Source: a virus
Taxonomy: Duplodnaviria; Heunggongvirae; Uroviricota; Caudoviricetes
DNA: 64,000 bases
IMG/VR virus record: IMGVR_UViG_2778261224_000007
Direction: 5' to 3' (one strand)
Shown here: piece after piece, positions 1,018-64,000 of the stretch
Numbering within the stretch: the stretch's first letter is position 1
How the letters are laid out: each line of letters opens with the position of its first letter
The notes under the pieces: model-generated
The model's input: only the letters and a program-made list of their open reading frames with translations
Database searches by the model: none
Told to the model about the DNA's origin: nothing
Position numbers and translations under genes: made by a program

Positions 1018-1629
1018 TCAACTGGCTGTAGAAAGTTGTTTTTCAGGCCAGTTGAGATCTGGTGCCGTGGTTAAATCCATCGCGTTCAGCTCGTCTATAT
1101 AATCTAGCACGGAGTTAAGCTGCGTGGTTTCTGCCTGCGTCAACTTCCGTCCAGCCCGTAATTTCAACTGAATCAGACTAATGGAATCCATCGCAGTATC
1201 AATCAATGACTGACGTTTTGTTTCTGCTGCCTCTACAGCTGCACTATGTTGAGCCTCAGTATCAACCACCCATTTCTCTCCATCCCATTTGTCGTATGGT
1301 GTTAGCGGGGCGATAGTGGTTGTATTTTCCGGATAGTCACCCAACACCGTGATTTCTTCGGGATTCCCAGTGTCAATGCTATAGACAGTTTCGCCACGAT
1401 GATCTGGCACATACTCCCATGAACTTAAATCCTCTGAACGGAGAATCGCATAACCTGCTTTATGTGAGCCTGGAGCATCCAAACAAGAATTTGCCGGAAT
1501 ACCAACGCCAACAGCAAGATATTCAGTTGATGCAGAAATATATTCCCGATTACCACCATCATAGTTATAAACGATAATGTTTCCTGCCTGTATGGCTATA
1601 AGTTCGCTATTTAATATCGCATTATCCAT
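1018..1629 (-). CDS. tail fibre assembly protein (U/Tfa-like chaperone)
   Basis: 203-aa ORF directly downstream of the tail-fibre gene with overlapping stop/start (ATGA); size and position typical of tail fibre assembly proteins. Confidence 0.7.
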   Translation of the reverse strand: MDNAILNSELIAIQAGNIIVYNYDGGNREYISASTEYLAVGVGIPANSCLDAPGSHKAGYAILRSEDLSSWEYVPDHRGETVYSIDTGNPEEITVLGDYPENTTTIAPLTPYDKWDGEKWVVDTEAQHSAAVEAAETKRQSLIDTAMDSISLIQLKLRAGRKLTQAETTQLNSVLDYIDELNAMDLTTAPDLNWPEKQLSTAS

Positions 1630-3608
1630 TATGCTGCTCTCACAATATAATTGAAGGCAATGTTACGTGGGCGGGTTTCATTCCCCCCAGATAACTCCGT
1701 TCTGTATTGACTGGTAAATTTACCATTAATCGCTCCTTGCCGGACGGCGTTATCTGTCGACAACAGACTATCCCCCCCTCTGTCATTTGGCACCAATACC
1801 GTGTTATCCCACGCGTCCCATGACCGAATATTATGATAATGACTTCCTGTTAACCACCCCTGTATGCTTAAGATGACCCTTCCCGCATCCACACCTCGCC
1901 CATCATCCCAACCACGGATAAACTCACCGCGTAAATCCGGTAATTTATTGGTGGGGTAGGCCTTTGCCAGTTTGGGATACATTTCAGAAGAAAATGCTGC
2001 ACCATTGCATTTTAGCCAGCCCGTTGGTGGTGTTTCTAAGGGCCACGGAACGGGCACACCAACAGGCAGTGCAGAGCCTTCCCCCAAACCAAGGTAATCA
2101 AGAACGCTCTGAATACTGGTCTTACCAAGAATGGCGCGTCCAACACTTGTCAATGCAGTTAACGCGGCACGATCAACACCTGTGAAATAAGGGAGTTTAT
2201 CTGCTGCTGTAGCTAGTGCCGCTAGAGCAGTGAGCGTAGCGTCTGCCGCTTGCTTTCCATTAGCCAAATCATATGCAGCCTTGACAGCTTTCGGTGTGGC
2301 GGCCAGCACTTCAGACGTGCTGTTAGTGGCACTACTGAGCTGAGTGATGCCTTTCGCTGTCAATGAAGCTGTTGGCACACCAGTGATCTGATTCCAGGGA
2401 TGTGTATGACTGGATGGTGCCTTTCCGGCTGCTAGATCGTATGCAGCTTTAACCGCTTTTGGAGTTGCAGCTAATGTTTCAGAAGTGCTGTTGGTGTCGC
2501 TACTGAGCTGAACTATCCCTTTTTGTGTCGTGGTTGCATCCTGGGCTGTATACTTCCCGTTAGCCAGGTCATATGCAGCCTTGACAGCTTTCGGTGTGGC
2601 GGCCAGCACTTCAGACGTGCTGTTAGTGGCACTACTGAGCTGAGTGATGCCTTTCGCTGTCAATGAAGCTGTTGGCACACCAGTGATCTGATTCCAGGGA
2701 TGTGTATGACTGGATGGTGCCTTTCCGGCTGCTAGATCGTATGCAGCTTTAACCGCTTTTGGAGTTGCAGCTAATGTTTCAGAAGTGCTGTTGGTGTCGC
2801 TACTGAGCTGAACTATCCCTTTTTGTGTCGTGGTTGCATCCTGGGCTGTATACTTCCCGTTAGCCAGGTCATATGCAGCCTTGACAGCTTTCGGTGTGGC
2901 GGCCAGCACTTCGGACGTACTGTTAGTGGCACTACTGAGCTGAACTAATCCCTTTTGCGTTGTGCTTGCATCCTGCGCCGTATATTTGCTTTTCGCCAGA
3001 TCGTAGGCTTTTTTAACTGCCAGCGAACTCGCAGCAACATCACTTCTGGTACTGGTTACAGAGTCTGAAATATCAATGCCGATCGTGCGGTTGATACGCT
3101 CGGATGTATCAATCATCTCTTGAGTAATGGTAGATACGCCAGCAGGGATATTCACCGTACAAACCAGCAGTTCCCCATCACCTAACTGATATGAATCGGT
3201 ATAGGTTCTGGCAACAAATTCAGCTGCATGAATATGTGACGCGGTATTCACCTGATAGGTATCTTCTCCAAGAAGGTATCTTCCCTTCAGCACAATTGCA
3301 TATTTCTTGCCTGCGTTAAGTGCAAGAGAGATATCCTTACGATGCTGAATAGTTACCTGGTAGAATTCACCAATATCCACTGACGCCGCGCCAGCGGTTT
3401 TATCTCCATCCACTGAGGTGATTAACAGGTTCATTCCACCGCCAGGCTTAGGCAAGAAACCAGCATAAAATCCCGGGTCAACAATTCCCCTGAATTTTCG
3501 GTTTAGAGCGGCTGACAGATATGGTTCGTGGTATTGCACATCAGCCACCAGAGCCAACGACTCGGGTGATGGGTAAGTAACCGATGTAACAACTGTAACG
3601 TCATTCAT
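1629..3608 (-). CDS. tail fibre protein (P1 S-like) with internal collagen/fibre repeats
   Basis: Repeated SSxTNSTSE(V/T)LAATPKAVKAAYDLA units; C-terminus RPRNIAFNYIVRAA; likely start is ATG at 3608 (MNDVTVV, RBS AAGGA) rather than the upstream codon at 3695. Confidence 0.85.
   Translation of the reverse strand: MNDVTVVTSVTYPSPESLALVADVQYHEPYLSAALNRKFRGIVDPGFYAGFLPKPGGGMNLLITSVDGDKTAGAASVDIGEFYQVTIQHRKDISLALNAGKKYAIVLKGRYLLGEDTYQVNTASHIHAAEFVARTYTDSYQLGDGELLVCTVNIPAGVSTITQEMIDTSERINRTIGIDISDSVTSTRSDVAASSLAVKKAYDLAKSKYTAQDASTTQKGLVQLSSATNSTSEVLAATPKAVKAAYDLANGKYTAQDATTTQKGIVQLSSDTNSTSETLAATPKAVKAAYDLAAGKAPSSHTHPWNQITGVPTASLTAKGITQLSSATNSTSEVLAATPKAVKAAYDLANGKYTAQDATTTQKGIVQLSSDTNSTSETLAATPKAVKAAYDLAAGKAPSSHTHPWNQITGVPTASLTAKGITQLSSATNSTSEVLAATPKAVKAAYDLANGKQAADATLTALAALATAADKLPYFTGVDRAALTALTSVGRAILGKTSIQSVLDYLGLGEGSALPVGVPVPWPLETPPTGWLKCNGAAFSSEMYPKLAKAYPTNKLPDLRGEFIRGWDDGRGVDAGRVILSIQGWLTGSHYHNIRSWDAWDNTVLVPNDRGGDSLLSTDNAVRQGAINGKFTSQYRTELSGGNETRPRNIAFNYIVRAA
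2079..2104. promoter_or_regulatory. hix/cix-like crossover site inside the tail-fibre gene (TTCCCCCAAACC-AA-GGTAATCAAGAA)
   Basis: Inverted relative to cassette sites; lies at the constant/variable boundary (codons for YLGLGEG); outer half resembles the Hin/Gin/Cin half-site TTCTTGAAAACC. Confidence 0.45.
2269..2945. repeat. perfect 300-bp tandem duplication (2 full copies plus a diverged partial third) inside the tail-fibre gene
   Basis: Sequence 2281-2580 is identical base-for-base to 2581-2880; 2881-2940 has 2 mismatches then diverges. Confidence 0.9.
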
Positions 3609-3619
3609 CAAGCATATCC

Positions 3620-4054
3620 TTATGCTGTAGTCGAGTTTATGGCCATAACTGCGGTATATGTTTTGCCCACATACAGCGAGTCTTCTTGGACACAAATAAT
3701 GGCGATTGGCTTATTCTCGTTATCCAGAACAACCAGAGTGTTGAATGGGTAGTTTTTCCCTTCCTGCAACTGACTTTGATCAAGGTCCATTCGGACAGTA
3801 ATTATCCCGCCTGAGTAGGTTGGGACGAGGTTGATGGTGCAAAATTGACTGGTCAGTTCTGCCAGATCGAAAGCCTTTGGCAGTTCTCCAATCTCATAAG
3901 TGCCATCTCCTTTCTTAGTAACCAGTGAACTGGTACCGAAAACGGCCTTGCTGATTAAAAATCGAGAGCCTTTGTTAATGGACGATTCAGCGCGCCGCTG
4001 ATAGTAATAGTCCAACAACTGACTCTTATAGAGGTTTGTTGAGACGTCAGACAT
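3620..4054 (-). CDS. tail/baseplate-associated protein (P1 R-like by position)
   Basis: 144-aa ORF immediately upstream of the tail-fibre gene in the same operon. Confidence 0.5.
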   Translation of the reverse strand: MSDVSTNLYKSQLLDYYYQRRAESSINKGSRFLISKAVFGTSSLVTKKGDGTYEIGELPKAFDLAELTSQFCTINLVPTYSGGIITVRMDLDQSQLQEGKNYPFNTLVVLDNENKPIAIICVQEDSLYVGKTYTAVMAINSTTA

Positions 4055-14004: not shown

Positions 14005-14021
14005 AATGCTCTAATAAATTT
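14005..14021 (+). promoter_or_regulatory. C1 repressor operator-like site (AATGCTCTAATAAATTT) upstream of the c4/icd/ant operon
   Basis: 16/17 match to recalled P1 C1 operator consensus ATTGCTCTAATAAATTT. Confidence 0.7.
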
Positions 14022-14199
14022 GTATTTTTAAGTCGCGAATGCTATCTTTTCGCATCATATTGACCTTTTAATCGTTCAGGCTTATAGTTCCGCCGTCGTA
14101 GCAAATTCTGCGACCGGGTTTGACAGCCTGAATGTTAGTGCGGACAACCGCTGATTTCCGATATTGCGGTATTTTTGTGTCCGTAAACCGCGTTACGCC

Positions 14200-14300
14200 C
14201 GAATTATGGTGGGGCGTGATGGGGAGGCTTCGGCCTGCTGGTTTCACTAACGCCAGTCTGTCAACCCTGTCACGTCCTGCCACCTGTTTGACAGCGGGTA
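14200..14300 (+). ncRNA. candidate c4-like antisense RNA / target region upstream of icd (boundaries approximate)
   Basis: Non-coding, GC-rich, UUCG-loop hairpin 14225-14236, internally complementary 7-mers CTGTCAA (14258-14264) and TTGACAG (14288-14294); position matches P1 c4. Confidence 0.35.
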
Positions 14301-14334
14301 GCAGGTTGTTAAACCTGTTAGTGAGGCCGTAACT

Positions 14335-14556
14335 ATGGTTAATGCCAATCCTTGCACACGCCAAGAATTCATCTGGCGTTTCTATTCCTGTAAAAAACAC
14401 CACTATCACTTCGTTATCGCAGCAACTGAAGACGAAGCACGCTCTCAATTGCCTGATGGCCCCTGCATTTTTACTGCCCGTTTTTCTACTAACTCGCGCA
14501 ATTCACTTAGTTACTGGAACCTCCCCTTCTCTGCCGACGTTCAGGGGGTTTTATGA
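14335..14556 (+). CDS. icd: Icd-like small protein (interference with cell division)
   Basis: 73 aa, translationally coupled (ATGA) to the downstream antirepressor as in P1 immI. Confidence 0.55.
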   Translation: MVNANPCTRQEFIWRFYSCKKHHYHFVIAATEDEARSQLPDGPCIFTARFSTNSRNSLSYWNLPFSADVQGVL

Positions 14557-15938
14557 AAAAACCTCTCGTCACCCGTAATGAAATTGCCGAAGCGATCGCT
14601 TTGCATACAACCTGTATGCCGACACGGGAGATCCCCGGCGCAATTGCCAACTATTTCATGATAACCAGACGTTTTTATACCCGAACAGATAAGGCGGTGA
14701 TCAACAGGCTACTGATAGCCGAGATCAGGGATTATTTGATTGAACAAGGACGTCTACGTTACGCAACAGTGGCAGCAGAAATGAGAAAGGAGGCACATAG
14801 AATGACCAGTAATAATTTGAATGTTAAAAAACCAGCATCTGTTGCTTCAGCTACGCCATCACCAGCTGTGAATGTCATCCCCACCACCGGAGACACAATC
14901 GACAGCCTGACACTGTTAAAGATGGTCAATGAAGCGCGTAAGTTATGTGGGGAACCAGAGGTTCGGAACAACAAATTCATCGAAAAAATACTCGATGAGC
15001 TTGATGGTGAGCACTACACAAAAAGTGTAGTGGAAAAAATGAACAGAACATCAATGCTTGTCATAACCATGACCTACAAACAAGCCCTGCGAGTTGCCGC
15101 ACGCGAATCAAAAGCGGTCCGCCGTTCGCTACATACCATGATTCAGTCATTGGAACCTATAAATGTAGAAAATCAGCCTGATGAAATTCCCGTTCTGGAA
15201 TGGCAGGGAGTACGCGTCGTGACAACCGAGACTCTTGCTAGAGGGTATGGCACTACACCTATTCGTATTCAGCAGAACTACAATCGCAATGAAGAACGAT
15301 TTGTAGAGGGTAAACACTTCTTTAAAATCAAAGGAGATGAGATAAAAAGTTTGCGACTATCTTTTAGCGAGTTGCAAATTTCCCCCAAGACCAGATCCTT
15401 AATACTCTGGACCGAACGCGGAGCGGCACGCATGTCTAAGATCGTAGACACAGAGCAAGCGTGGGCATTCTTTGAAAAACTGGAAGACAGCTACTTCCGG
15501 CAAAAAGAACAGCAACCGGTCACAATCCCCCAAACATTACCAGAAGCTCTACGCCTGGCTGCCGAGTTGGCAGAGCAGAAAATGCAGTTGGAACAACAGC
15601 TGGTGGCCGCAGCCCCTAAAGTCGAGTTTGCCGACCGGGTATCAGTGGCCAATGGAATCCTGATCGGGAACTTTGCAAAGGTCGTTGGACTTAAGCAAAA
15701 CGCCCTTTTCTCATGGTTGCGCCAGAACGGCATTCTCATGGCTTTTGGTGCGCGCAAAAACGTACCGCGCCAGCAGTACATTAACGCCGGGTATTTCACG
15801 GTGAAAGAAGTGGTGCTGGATGATGAAAATGGCTATCAGATACGGCTGACGCCCCAATTAACGGGTAAAGGCCAACAGTGGTTAACTCGCAAGCTACTTG
15901 ATGCTGGTTTGTTAAAACCAGTGGCGTCCTTGTCTTAA
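14553..15938 (+). CDS. ant: antirepressor Ant with C-terminal KilA-C type domain
   Basis: 461 aa; C-terminal region homologous to the KilA C-terminal domain (LPEALRLAAELAEQK...GKGQQWL). Confidence 0.75.
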   Translation: MKKPLVTRNEIAEAIALHTTCMPTREIPGAIANYFMITRRFYTRTDKAVINRLLIAEIRDYLIEQGRLRYATVAAEMRKEAHRMTSNNLNVKKPASVASATPSPAVNVIPTTGDTIDSLTLLKMVNEARKLCGEPEVRNNKFIEKILDELDGEHYTKSVVEKMNRTSMLVITMTYKQALRVAARESKAVRRSLHTMIQSLEPINVENQPDEIPVLEWQGVRVVTTETLARGYGTTPIRIQQNYNRNEERFVEGKHFFKIKGDEIKSLRLSFSELQISPKTRSLILWTERGAARMSKIVDTEQAWAFFEKLEDSYFRQKEQQPVTIPQTLPEALRLAAELAEQKMQLEQQLVAAAPKVEFADRVSVANGILIGNFAKVVGLKQNALFSWLRQNGILMAFGARKNVPRQQYINAGYFTVKEVVLDDENGYQIRLTPQLTGKGQQWLTRKLLDAGLLKPVASLS

Positions 15939-16491: not shown

Positions 16492-16508
16492 TTTGCTCTA
16501 ATAAATTT
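16492..16508 (+). promoter_or_regulatory. C1 operator-like site (TTTGCTCTAATAAATTT) upstream of kilA
   Basis: 16/17 match to consensus. Confidence 0.7.
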
Positions 16509-60065: not shown

Positions 60066-61259
60066 GTGACCTGGGACGATCACAAGAAGAATTTTGCTCG
60101 CCTGGCGCGAGATGGTGGTTACACCATCGCACAATATGCCGCCGAGTTTAATCTCAACCCAAACACCGCACGTCGTTATCTCCGTGCATTCAAAGAAGAC
60201 ACCAGAACAGCGGACAGCCGTAAGCCAAATAAGCCTGTCAGGAAACCACTAAAAAGCATGATCATTGATCACGCTAATGATCAACGTGCAGGTGATCACA
60301 TTGTGGCTGAAGTGGCTGAAAAACAAAGAGTTAATGCTGTTGTCAGTGCCGCAGTCGAGAACGCTAAGCGCCAAAATAAGCGCATAAATGATCGTTCTGA
60401 TGATCATGACGTGATCACCCGCGCCCACCGTACCTTACGTGATCGCCTGGAACGCGACACCCTGGATGATGATGGTGAACGCTTTGAATTCGAAGCTGGC
60501 GATTACCTGATAGATAACGTTGAAGCGCGGAAGGCCGCGCGCGCTATGTTGCGTCGGTCCGGGGCCGATGTTCTGGAAACCACTCTTCTGGAAAAGTCTC
60601 TTTCTCATCTCCTTATGCTGGAGAACGCCAGGGATACGTGCATTCGCCTGGTGCAGGAAATGCGCGATCAGCAAAAAGACGATGATGAAGGTACTCCGCC
60701 TGAATACCGTATCGCGAGCATGCTAAACAGCTGTTCCGCGCAGATAAGCAGCCTGATCAACACCATTTACAGCATCCGGAATAACTATCGAAAAGAAAGC
60801 CGGGAGGCGGAAAAGCACGCTTTATCTATGGGGCAAGCTGGCATTGTTAAGCTGGCATACGAACGAAAGCGTGAAAATAACTGGTCAGTGCTGGAAGCGG
60901 CTGAATTCATCGAGGCGCATGGAGGAAAAGTGCCGCCCCTGATGCTGGAGCAAATCAAAGCCGATCTGCGTGCTCCTAAGACCAATACCGATGATGAGGA
61001 AAATCAAACAGCATCTGGCGCTCCATCACTTGAAGATCTGGATAAAATCGCGCGAGAACGGGCCGCCAGCCGCCGCGCTGATGCCGCATTGTGGATTGAG
61101 CATCGTAGAGAAGAAATTGCCGATATCGTCGATACAGGTGGTTATGGTGATGTCGATGCGGAAGGCATATCAAACGAAGCATGGCTTGAACAGGATCTGG
61201 ACGAAGACGAGGAGGAAGACGAAGAAGTTACCCGCAAACTGTACGGGGATGATGATTAA
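60066..61259 (+). CDS. pacA: terminase small subunit PacA (contains pac site)
   Basis: 397 aa; N-terminus [28 protein letters not shown] recognised; acidic C-terminus; pac GATC clusters inside. Confidence 0.85.
60255..60420. promoter_or_regulatory. pac packaging site: two clusters of TGATCA/GATC hexamers
   Basis: 4 GATC at 60260-60297 and 3 GATC at 60390-60416, the arrangement recalled for the Dam-methylation-regulated P1 pac site. Confidence 0.8.
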
Positions 61260-62743
61260 TGGCCAGAAGTTGCGTAACGGATCCACGTTGGCGCGAGCTG
61301 GTGGCGCTATATCGTTATGACTGGATTGCGGCCGCTGATGTGTTGTTTGGGAAGACACCAACCTGGCAGCAGGATGAGATCATTGAGTCCACGCAGCAGG
61401 ACGGCAGTTGGACAAGTGTGACCTCCGGCCATGGTACTGGTAAATCGGATATGACGAGTATCATTGCAATACTCTTCATCATGTTTTTCCCCGGCGCTCG
61501 CGTCATTCTGGTCGCTAACAAAAGACAGCAAGTCCTTGATGGTATTTTCAAATACATAAAGAGCAATTGGGCTACTGCTGTTAGCAGATTCCCGTGGTTG
61601 TCGAAGTATTTCATTCTTACAGAAACGTCTTTTTTTGAGGTGACTGGCAAGGGTGTTTGGACAATATTGATAAAGTCCTGTCGCCCCGGAAATGAGGAGG
61701 CGTTGGCTGGTGAACACGCCGATCATCTCTTGTATATCATCGACGAAGCGTCGGGGGTGAGTGATAAAGCATTCAGTGTGATAACAGGTGCGCTGACCGG
61801 TAAGGATAACCGTATTCTGCTTCTTTCCCAGCCTACGCGACCTTCAGGCTATTTCTACGATTCACACCACAGACTAGCTATTCGCCCGGGAAATCCTGAT
61901 GGATTGTTTACTGCGATAATACTGAATAGTGAAGAATCTCCGCTTGTAGATGCAAAATTTATACGAGCAAAACTTGCGGAGTATGGCGGTCGTGATAACC
62001 CCATGTACATGATCAAAGTACGTGGTGAATTTCCCAAATCTCAAGATGGCTTTCTTCTTGGTCGTGATGAGGTTGAGCGGGCGACGCGGCGAAAGGTCAA
62101 GATTGCCAAAGGATGGGGCTGGGTTGCATGTGTTGACGTTGCTGGTGGCACAGGACGAGATAAGTCCGTTATTAATATCATGATGGTGTCCGGCCAGCGA
62201 AATAAACGCCGTGTAATCAACTATCGTATGCTGGAATACACAGACGTTACAGAAACGCAGTTAGCCGCCAAGATTTTCGCAGAATGTAACCCAGAACGGT
62301 TCCCGAACATAACCATAGCTATTGATGGCGATGGCTTGGGGAAATCGACGGCTGATCTAATGTACGAACGCTATGGCATTACCGTCCAGCGTATCCGCTG
62401 GGGTAAAAAGATGCACAGCCGTGAAGATAAAAGCCTTTATTTCGATATGCGCGCTTTCGCGAATATTCAGGCGGCAGAAGCTGTAAAATCAGGGCGTATG
62501 AGGCTTGATAAGGGGGCTGCGACTATAGAGGAAGCATCAAAGATACCGGTAGGGATAAATTCCGCAGGTCAATGGAAGGTGATGTCAAAGGAAGATATGA
62601 AGAAAAAACTCAACCTGCACTCACCGGACCATTGGGATACATATTGTTTCGCTATGTTGGCGAACTATGTTCCCCAAGATGAAGTGCTTAGCGTCGAAGA
62701 CGAAGCGCAGGTTGATGAAGCTCTGGCATGGCTTAACGAGTAA
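61259..62743 (+). CDS. pacB: terminase large subunit PacB
   Basis: 494 aa; Walker A-like GHGTGKS; coupled to pacA. Confidence 0.85.
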
Positions 62744-62746
62744 AAA

Positions 62747-62763
62747 CTTGCTCTAATAAATTG
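62747..62763 (+). promoter_or_regulatory. C1 operator-like site (CTTGCTCTAATAAATTG)
   Basis: 15/17 match; immediately after pacB stop, upstream of second icd/ant-like module. Confidence 0.65.
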
Positions 62764-62959
62764 TGTTTTTTGACTGCCGATGTTACATTGAACCTGACCT
62801 CTTGCGCCTTGAGGCATTTTCGGTTTATGCTTATCAGGCACCTCATTAAAACGGGTGCCGGGATTGAGACCCCGGATAATGTCAAAGGCGACACAGACGC
62901 CGAAAGCGTCTTTTTTTGTGTCATGCCATCGCACAGCCATACGTAGCGTTTAGCTCCGA

Positions 62960-63062
62960 AATCAATGGTAGTGCTGGCTGGGCTGCCGAAAGGCAGGCCG
63001 GTTCCCTTTGACGCCGGTAGTCTCAACCCAGTCAGTGCTACCGCCATTGAGATTGAGACCTC
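62960..63062 (+). ncRNA. candidate second c4-like antisense RNA / target region (boundaries approximate)
   Basis: GAAA-loop hairpin 62983-62996; complementary 7-mers GTCTCAA (63020-63026) and TTGAGAC (63053-63059), paralleling the first module with compensatory changes. Confidence 0.3.
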
Positions 63063-63102
63063 ACGCGGTAGCTCCTTAACTTAGTCAAAGGAGGCTGCCA
63101 TT

Positions 63103-63324
63103 ATGGCTACTGTCCCTACCCCAACTCATCCTGAATTCATCTGGCGCTTCTATTCCTGCCAGAAACGTCACTATCACTTCGTTATTGCACCGACAGAAGA
63201 TGAGGCCCGTTCTCAGCTTCCTGACGCTCCCTGCATTTTCTCTGCCCGCTTTTCCACTGATTCGCGCAACTCTCTCAGTTACTGGTGCCTCCCTGTTAAC
63301 GCTTCTGCTCAGGAGGGACTATGA
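63103..63324 (+). CDS. second Icd-like small protein
   Basis: 73 aa; shares EFIWRFYSC, HYHFVIA, TEDEARSQLPD and SRNSLSYW blocks with the ORF at 14335-14556. Confidence 0.6.
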   Translation: MATVPTPTHPEFIWRFYSCQKRHYHFVIAPTEDEARSQLPDAPCIFSARFSTDSRNSLSYWCLPVNASAQEGL

Positions 63325-64000
63325 GAACGTCATTAGTCACCCGTGAAGAAATGATTGAGGCAATTGAACAGCACACATCCTGTATCAGTACCAGGGATAT
63401 ACCGGGCGTTATTGCCAACTACTTCATGATCACCAAACAACTTTACCGGAGAAAGGACAAGAACGCTGTTCACCGCATTCTGTTGTCTGATATCCGCGAA
63501 TACCTGCTCGAACAGGGGCATCTGAATTACGCAACCGTCGCAGCCGAAACACGCAAGGAGGCACACAGAATGAAAGCAACTAACGTTAAATCAGAAAAAA
63601 CTCATGCACCTTCAGTTCAGGAATCGGAGCTGGTGGTTGTTCAGAATCAGTCTGATGAAATTCCCGTTCTGGAATGGCTGGGAGTGCGTGTAGTGACAAC
63701 TAAGATCCTTGCTAAGGGGTATGGGACAGATGCGGATAACATCAAGAAGAACTTTTCCCGTAATGCTGAACGTTTTTGTGAAGGCAAGCATTTCTATAAA
63801 GTTATTGGAGATGATTTGAACAATTTGCGGGTGACTTTAAGTAACTCACAAAATCCTATCTCTCCTAAAGCCCGCTCACTCATCCTCTGGACGGAACGCG
63901 GCGCAGCCCGCCACGCTAAAATGATCGAAACCGATCAGGCATGGGCATTCTTTGAAAAACTGGAAGACAGCTACTTCCGACAAAAAGAACAGCAACCGAT
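63321..64000 (+). CDS. second antirepressor (Ant-like), 3' end beyond the window
   Basis: ATGA overlap with upstream gene as in the first module; N-terminal and central regions homologous to Ant at 14553-15938 but lacking a segment of roughly 90 aa. Confidence 0.65.
   Translation, partial: MRTSLVTREEMIEAIEQHTSCISTRDIPGVIANYFMITKQLYRRKDKNAVHRILLSDIREYLLEQGHLNYATVAAETRKEAHRMKATNVKSEKTHAPSVQESELVVVQNQSDEIPVLEWLGVRVVTTKILAKGYGTDADNIKKNFSRNAERFCEGKHFYKVIGDDLNNLRVTLSNSQNPISPKARSLILWTERGAARHAKMIETDQAWAFFEKLEDSYFRQKEQQP

Follow-up and report, generated by a model that had tools for sequence, protein, structure and literature searches.

The immI regions of phages P1 and P7 are the closest described systems to the locus analyzed here, and the mechanism of the P1 C4 switch has been summarized in PMC12197685 and PMC8201110. 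The C4 RNA of P1 is a trans-acting repressor (Citron and Schuster 1990, as cited in PMC12197685). In the available portions of two further reports, a related region is noted at another place: Venturini et al. 2019 mentioned 'two short hypothetical orfs' and the antirepressor gene ant between pacB and c1, as in RCS47, and PMC6799933 mentioned that the D6-like prophage pYU39_89 has a second region with an antisense RNA and icd. The second RNA, its targets and its specificity are not described in those portions of the two reports, and a literature search, with most subscription journals outside its scope, found no analysis of the targets or the specificity of this RNA. As for Gifsy-1, the region considered below as C4 was modelled in PMC4825925 as coding for 'orf45', with P1 and C4 unmentioned, and a 2025 review presents IsrK and c4 as separate entries.

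The window, i.e., the whole stretch of 64,000 nucleotides that was analyzed (IMG/VR virus record IMGVR_UViG_2778261224_000007), is part of a P1-family plasmid prophage of the RCS47-like kind. Positions 62000-64000 presented 100% identity to the E. coli plasmids NZ_CP043218.1 and NZ_CP016549.1 (IncY) and 95% identity to phage RCS47, and the immI of phage P1 was 99% identical to positions 14040-14560 over 521 nt. Three tRNA genes, as in the P1 tRNA cluster, were observed at 36771-36843, 36849-36921, and 38356-38428. A consensus scan revealed 12 C1-operator-like sites in the window versus 0.33 expected; they include sites at 16492, 32567, 36089/36100, 45951, and 51716, with an overlapping divergent pair at 36089-36116.

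It is very likely that this window contains the P1-type immI switch twice, each copy being complete and having its own specificity. The first one (module 1, 14005-15938) is, judged from its sequence, the classical immI with P1 specificity, and it is composed of the following features:

14005..14021, plus strand: C1 operator at the 5′ side of the module (Op51/Oc4 equivalent), with one mismatch to the consensus and in the position of the curated P1 Oc4
14060..14088, plus strand: sigma-70 promoter TTGACC-17-TATAGT, the P1c4/P51b equivalent, coinciding with the curated P1 promoter
14120..14126, plus strand: a1 target, TTGACAG, found as a complement word, curated in P1 and placed inside the Rfam c4-a1b1 match
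14134..14141, plus strand: b1 target, GTTAGTGC, in which 7 of 8 nt pair with b′; complement word, curated in P1
14208..14284, plus strand: C4 antisense RNA (Rfam RF01695; mature ends taken from the P1 annotation)
14244-14251, plus strand: b′, UCACUAAC, in the loop of hairpin 2 of the predicted fold
14258-14264, plus strand: a′, CUGUCAA, in the linker of the predicted fold
14288..14294, plus strand: a2 target, TTGACAG; complement word, curated in P1
14317..14324, plus strand: b2 target, GTTAGTGA, overlapping the GAGG ribosome-binding site of icd; complement word, curated in P1
14335..14556, plus strand: icd, an ORF of 73 aa curated in P1, whose stop codon overlaps the ant1 start (ATGA)
14553..15938, plus strand: ant1/ant2 antirepressor, an ORF of 461 aa corresponding to P1 Ant1 with an extra ORF6N domain

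The C4 RNA of this module was identical to that of P1, and the curated P1 annotation of a1, b1, c4, a2, and b2 mapped one-to-one onto it. Its location between sim and kilA-repL is also that of a P1-type immI. The Ant1 protein has 461 aa versus 347 aa in P1 and contains an ORF6N domain inserted at around residues 210-300, which is also present in the antirepressor of the second module.

The second module starts at 62747 and extends beyond the window end, as a cassette of ~2.7 kb located between pacB (61259-62743) and c1. The full record places c1 and coi on the opposite strand, 33 nt past the ant paralogue. The similarity of P1 and P7 to the window stops at the pacB stop codon, and the insertion is absent from both. 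Since module 2 sits between pacB and c1 and not between sim and kilA-repL, it is regarded as an immI-like paralogue and not as immI itself. Its features are:

62747..62763, plus strand: C1-operator-like site, CTTGCTCTAATAAATTG, with two mismatches (15/17), 4 nt past the pacB stop codon
62838..62916, plus strand: isrK-type leader (Rfam RF01394, 60.2 bits versus a gathering score of 50)
62864-62870, plus strand: a1, TTGAGAC; complement word
62881-62888, plus strand: b1, GTCAAAGG; complement word
62895-62911, plus strand: intrinsic terminator of the leader plus a T run, from the terminator scan
62961..63048, plus strand: C4-like antisense RNA (C4-2) with the 3′ tail GCCA, from Rfam RF01695, the fold and 11 compensatory pairs
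63005-63012, plus strand: b′, CCUUUGAC, in the loop of hairpin 2 of the predicted fold
63020-63026, plus strand: a′, GUCUCAA, in the linker of the predicted fold
63053..63059, plus strand: a2 target, TTGAGAC; complement word
63084..63091, plus strand: b2 target, GTCAAAGG, continuing into the GGAGG ribosome-binding site that precedes the icd paralogue
63103..63324, plus strand: icd paralogue of 73 aa, 77% identical to the Icd of module 1, whose stop overlaps the ant start (ATGA)
63321..64000, plus strand: ant paralogue (Ant-2), cut by the window end, of 371 aa in the full record, with ORF6N and KilAC domains

The distance from the C1-operator site to a1 was nearly preserved (117 nt in module 2 and 115 nt, counted from Op51, in module 1). 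In both modules c4 precedes icd, whose stop codon overlaps the start codon of an Ant1-like antirepressor gene, which is the arrangement of an immI operon. Ant-2 was 72% identical to the Ant1 of the window over the C-terminal ~300 aa, both proteins having ORF6N and KilAC domains, and ~92% identical to P1 Ant1 across the last ~140 aa. The leader of module 2 scored above the gathering threshold of isrK, a family of Hfq-binding RNAs, and ended in an intrinsic terminator. The consensus scan found no sigma-70 promoter in module 2, and a weak TTGCGC-18-TATGCT was read by eye at the position equivalent to P51b. Because a strong terminator lies between b1 and c4-2, the expression of c4-2, icd, and ant would need read-through or another promoter. 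The mature form of C4-2 is predicted, by analogy with P1, at ~62967-63045. In RefSeq, a 39-aa CDS named 'ash family protein' is placed on the C4-2 RNA at 62965-63084 (L001 9966-10085), and its translation matched Pfam PF10554 (Phage_ASH) with 28.3 bits versus a cutoff of 26. This CDS is probably spurious, and part of PF10554 may have been built on translated C4 genes.

In the proposed mechanism, the promoter region preceded by the C1 operator would drive one transcript comprising the a1/b1 leader, the C4 RNA, a2/b2, icd, and ant, with a1 and b1 in the leader acting as decoy or target sites. C4, a tRNA-like RNA of ~77-79 nt, would be cut from this leader transcript, as RNase P does in P1, and would expose b′ as part of a hairpin loop and a′ as part of a single-stranded linker, which could then pair with b2 and a2. 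This pairing would cover the icd ribosome-binding site and block Ant synthesis by means of icd-ant translational coupling, and Ant released from C4 control would inactivate the C1 repressor. The processing of P1 C4 by RNase P was reportedly described by Hartmann et al. 1995, and Biere et al. 1992 are said to have described Rho-dependent termination caused by C4 in P1. Hints of a release by RNase P were also present in the window, namely an acceptor-like stem followed by ACC in module 1 or by GCCA in module 2. By analogy with P1, C4-2 would be processed and would repress its icd and ant in trans, and Ant-2 would bind C1. A lysogen producing both RNAs would then be protected against derepression by incoming relatives of either specificity and, as an invader, the same element would bring an ant gene that a resident prophage of a single specificity could not silence.

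The assignment of both RNAs to the C4 family was supported by the Rfam model RF01695, which matched 14202-14287 with 68.8 bits and 62961-63048 with 75.4 bits (gathering score 45), while the c4-a1b1 model (RF03163) matched 14082-14134, upstream of the module 1 C4. In the predicted minimum free energy fold of each RNA, two hairpins lie within a long closing stem, and the z-scores relative to shuffled sequences were –4.7 (module 1) and –5.3 (module 2). In both predicted folds a′ and b′ were unpaired and the 7-mer was held by the same linker; in module 1, a′ was exactly the 7-nt linker joining hairpin 2 and the closing stem. The first-pass annotation of this DNA had reported a complementary 7-mer pair in each module and proposed its own tests, a C4 family search and structure prediction, both of which came out in its favor: the pairs lie where it had placed them (CTGTCAA at 14258-14264 with TTGACAG at 14288-14294, and GTCTCAA at 63020-63026 with TTGAGAC at 63053-63059), inside or beside C4 matches, with the RNA-borne 7-mers in the unpaired linker of a C4-type fold whose stems present compensatory changes. 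Its reading of the 7-mer pair as a signature of co-variation was correct in that this is the real a′/a2 pair of the curated P1 annotation, but it is only part of a six-element system. Each module has a1 and b1 upstream, b′ and a′ in the RNA, and a2 and b2 downstream, in antiparallel order, with b2 placed on the icd ribosome-binding site in both modules and in every specificity type. The a′/a2 difference between the modules had thus been recognized, whereas the b elements, the upstream a1/b1, and the far larger difference in b than in a had been overlooked.

Other complementarities in the window were also considered. TTGACAG together with GTTAGTG recurs every 300 bp at 2281-2922, and these sites were discarded as extra C4 targets, as they lie on the antisense strand of a tail-fibre coding repeat and represent chance multiplied by repetition. 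The tail-fibre gene itself (1629-3695, minus strand) contains a tandem coding repeat of 300 bp at 2253-2943, with 2.3 copies that are 98% identical. A possible third helix was noted between the 3′ strand of the C4 closing stem and a segment of the a2-b2 spacer (63037-63044/63065-63072 and 14274-14282/14297-14305). In the module 2 family, one change in this helix is compensated, but the changes in the P1 family are not; the complementarity exists in Gifsy-1 as well.

Comparing the modules with each other, a′ differs in 2 of 7 nt and b′ in ~5 of 8 nt, the b words being unrelated, and the targets change to match in each module, which is the pattern of a heteroimmune pair. A word search in the window found no cross-module complementary word involving the a/b elements. 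Duplex energies were calculated as the sum over the two unpaired elements, with random 60-nt windows as background. C4-1 paired with its own leaders at –17.8 and –15.0 kcal/mol and with the module 2 leaders at –6.2 and –7.7 kcal/mol (random mean –7.6, sd 2.5), and C4-2 reached –20.3 and –20.5 kcal/mol on its own leaders and –13.8 and –9.3 kcal/mol on those of module 1 (random mean –9.3, sd 3.0). Non-cognate duplexes (–6.2 to –13.8 kcal/mol) were therefore within the random background, in contrast to the cognate ones (–15.0 to –20.5 kcal/mol). As both the a word and the b word differ, each RNA should silence only its own ant: no action of C4-1 on leader 2 is expected, and C4-2 may exert a weak one-way cross-talk on leader 1, where the value of –13.8 kcal/mol is ~1.5 sd better than random. 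Orthogonality of the two switches in vivo and functional heteroimmunity would be predicted from their sequences.

The conservation of these pairings was assessed in 160 loci from IMG/VR, anchored on the two Icd proteins. A covariance model was seeded on the window RNAs, P1, and P7 using a MAFFT seed in which the 3′ half of module 2 was misaligned, and all sequences were realigned by Infernal. With this model, C4 was found upstream of icd at a constant distance in 166 places. The one exception was L061, in which a deletion (1200-1520) joins internal pacB coding sequence to b2-icd, removing the C1 operator, the leader, and c4; with c4 lost, its icd-ant would be without C4 control. Word typing, performed on 164 loci with full flanks, revealed 16 combinations of b′ and a′ made from nine b words and five a words, including those of P1, P7, and P1/P7 hybrids. 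In all 164 loci a1, b1, a2, and b2 paired with their own RNA at fixed positions, and the earlier statement that the pairs differ between modules and stay complementary within each one could thus be extended to 16 types, all of whose targets follow their own RNA. One common type (L024-like) uses single G·U pairs; an exact-word search had pointed to the lack of b1, a2, and b2 in this type, and all of them were present once G·U was allowed.

In the P1 family (30 distinct leaders), the a′/a2, b′/b2, a′/a1, and b′/b1 helices were 100% paired with eight pairs changed on both sides, none of 500 shuffles reached the covariation score, and pairing fell to 26-39% when the partner was slid by one column. 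The internal stems of this family were nearly invariant and consequently uninformative on compensation. In the module 2 family (18 sequences including one from an Stx phage), the target helices were also 100% paired, nine target pairs had changed on both sides, again with 0/500 shuffles, and 11 pairs inside the RNA fold had changed on both sides and were 100% paired. Across both families, the one-column slide control gave 26-56% pairing. Loss of pairing in related loci, looked for together with slid and shuffled controls, was not what emerged: the pairing was kept and the controls dropped. Moreover, the six elements were far more diverse than the rest of the sequence, with a mean pairwise diversity of 0.282 versus 0.032 in the P1 family (p ~6e-11) and of 0.137 versus 0.025 among close relatives of module 2 (p ~2e-5).

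The two-module layout was found in two complete plasmids (100% identity), in phage RCS47, in 258 PLSDB plasmids, defined as those holding at least 80% of the query (pacB end plus module 2), and in 24 contigs of the IMG/VR locus sample with at least two modules. Its recurrence in complete circular plasmids and phage genomes indicates that it is not an assembly artefact. The module 2 leader was present in 421 of 5426 complete E. coli genomes (~8%), and 439 of its 456 places were on plasmids. Two modules were also observed in phages RCS47, JL22, 673R5, and D6. The first-pass annotation had stressed that two specificities occur inside one genome; both modules are indeed there, but these 24 contigs and 421 genomes reveal that the situation is not unusual. 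The usual pair consists of a P1-family and a module 2-family module ~49 kb apart, and some contigs of the sample hold three modules. As the two slots hold different RNA sub-families, the difference between the modules need not reflect selection for orthogonality. In the four contigs with two P1-family modules b′ differed in 4/4 (~29% expected by chance) and a′ was sometimes shared, which, for these four contigs only, suggests that specificity is determined mainly by b. The IMG/VR contigs 2534681832_000017, 2703718869_000013, 2698536372_000019, and 651053023_000001 contain three modules or two P1-family ones. In a 42-kb contig (L007), a C4 gene of the module 2 family occurs as two identical copies spaced 1.5 kb apart (1359-1446 and 2925-3012), the second copy being again preceded by a pacB 3′ end and a C1 operator, which represents either a tandem duplication or an assembly artefact; this contig also holds two more P1-family modules.

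In Gifsy-1 (L165, NC_010392, 34131-34329, minus strand), an Rfam C4 match of 69 bits lies 25 nt downstream of isrK, the c4-a1b1 match overlaps isrK, and an antirepressor-like gene follows C4. The a/b rule holds there, with a′ ACGCCAA and TTGGCGT found twice, and b′ CGGUGAU and TCACCG and ATCACCG; it also holds in an Stx2 phage. When the Gifsy-1 transcription start was set at ACGCCAGC, the 11 nucleotide identities given in Hershko-Shalev et al. 2016 all fitted, and in the numbering of that study a1 corresponds to nt 26-32 and a′ to nt 158-164. From these positions, the compensatory mutants G28A/C162U and G31A/C159U reported for Gifsy-1 in PMC4825925 are a1:a′ pairs. The conserved AUGG of the C4 5′ end provides the first AUG of 'orf45'. 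The IsrK of Salmonella is, by this correspondence, the a1/b1 leader in a C4 module and 'orf45' is a C4 homologue, and the ~80-nt processed RNA of Hershko-Shalev et al. 2016 is probably C4. The comparison also suggests that the a1/b1 leader is a decoy titrating C4. An isrK and a C4 without icd were further seen to precede Rha/Ant-type regulators in more than 100 Stx1- and Stx2-converting lambdoid phages, such as LC710660.1 (L166 1200-1387), each with its own a and b words.

Three other explanations of these data deserve consideration. The complementarity of the 7-mers could have arisen by chance, as a by-product of local repeats or by chimeric assembly. Each of the words occurs 5-8 times in the 64 kb of the window along with other chance 6-8-mers, so that a lone 7-mer complement near an RNA of ~85 nt is weak evidence, and the target words of module 1 recur in the tail-fibre repeat. 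Nevertheless, the population co-variation and the recurrence of the layout in complete circular plasmids and phage genomes leave this explanation with a negligible probability. Another one, which is very improbable, sees in module 2 a duplicate, decaying or silent, that has ceased to regulate anything. The scan found no strong promoter in it, a deletion variant without c4 exists (L061), and its absence from P1 and P7 indicates that it is dispensable; on the other hand, its ORFs for icd and ant are intact and the domains complete, 11 compensatory pairs in the RNA fold and nine in the target helices accumulated across the family, and the specificity words diversified and were still matched, in a module carried by 421 complete E. 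coli genomes. The related loci examined did not reveal a majority of module 2 copies with frameshifts or with target mismatches lacking compensation.

An action of the module 2 elements mainly in cis is the most serious of these alternatives, although unlikely. According to it, a1, b1, and their partners would produce alternative leader folds, as the structures A and B of the Gifsy-1 isrK-orf45 transcript, the short terminated leader RNA would be an activator, and C4-2 would not be a diffusible repressor. A strong terminator is part of the isrK-type leader of module 2, a1/b1 are conserved and co-vary as well as a2/b2, and in Gifsy-1 the a1:a′ pairs form inside the long transcript, as revealed by compensatory mutation, with the short IsrK activating anrP translation in trans (PMC4825925). 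However, such an action is compatible with trans repression, and the same study also detected a processed RNA of ~80 nt from the 'orf45' region. The module 2 RNA, in addition, keeps the tRNA-like acceptor stem and the RCCA-like tail expected for release by RNase P, its P1 homologue represses in trans (Citron and Schuster 1990, as cited in PMC12197685), and b2 lies on the ribosome-binding site in every type. The reading of the window as two complete and independently specified immI switches is preferred.

Beyond the window, a wider proposal can be made tentatively, with a chance somewhat short of balanced for the reading as a whole. An RNA 'immunity barcode' would be common to P1-family phage-plasmids and many lambdoid prophages, with a and b each present in three copies per module, one in the RNA and two in the leader, and diversifying and recombining independently. 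Genomes would stack two or three differently barcoded ant modules, widening both their immunity and their derepression range, and a1/b1 would represent a dedicated decoy sRNA (IsrK in Salmonella) that flips the switch, and not a relic. If this were the case, the IsrK/orf45 mechanism would be a C4 sponge and the long-unexplained a1/b1 sites of P1 would gain a function. Likewise, if the modules were orthogonal in vivo, coexistence, mutual induction, and superinfection resistance among P1-like elements should be predictable from how many C4 barcodes they carry and of which type. In E. coli, phage-plasmids have an important role in carrying resistance genes, and the module data provide a context for their competition. 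The specificity words are the fastest-changing positions of the leader and are reshuffled between elements, and the public annotation of 'ash family protein' and 'orf45' CDSs hides an RNA gene. The IsrK link ties a well-studied Salmonella sRNA to the C4 system. The main value of these findings lies in the population-level barcode picture and in the IsrK connection, the mechanism itself being textbook P1 biology.

In relation to the systems already described, the mechanism is known from P1 and P7, and the insertion and a second c4/icd region had been noted before, with the RNA specificity system not analyzed in the available text of those reports. The ant insertion between pacB and c1 also occurs in RCS47 (95% identity) and in pTZ20_1P, and the RCS47 record annotates only ant there. 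Unlike module 2, Gifsy-1 and the Stx phages have no icd. Module 2 shares with the immI of P1 and P7 the order of the parts, the fold, the six-element logic, the operator distance, and the icd-ant ATGA overlap. It differs from them in its location, between pacB and c1 rather than from sim to kilA/repL, in its a and b words, which are distinct from those of both phages, in its isrK-type leader with a strong intrinsic terminator, unlike that of P1, and in the ORF6N domain of Ant-2, which P1 Ant1 lacks. The analogy with P1/P7 heteroimmunity, drawn already from the 7-mers, is apt: between the two phages, a′ and b′ each show a 2-nt difference and all four targets have changed to match, and the modules of the window are likewise matched. 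In P1 and P7, however, two specificities with b words 2 nt apart reside in two phages, whereas the window gathers in one genome two whose b words are unrelated, and against the two combinations represented by P1 and P7 the sampled population presented at least 16.
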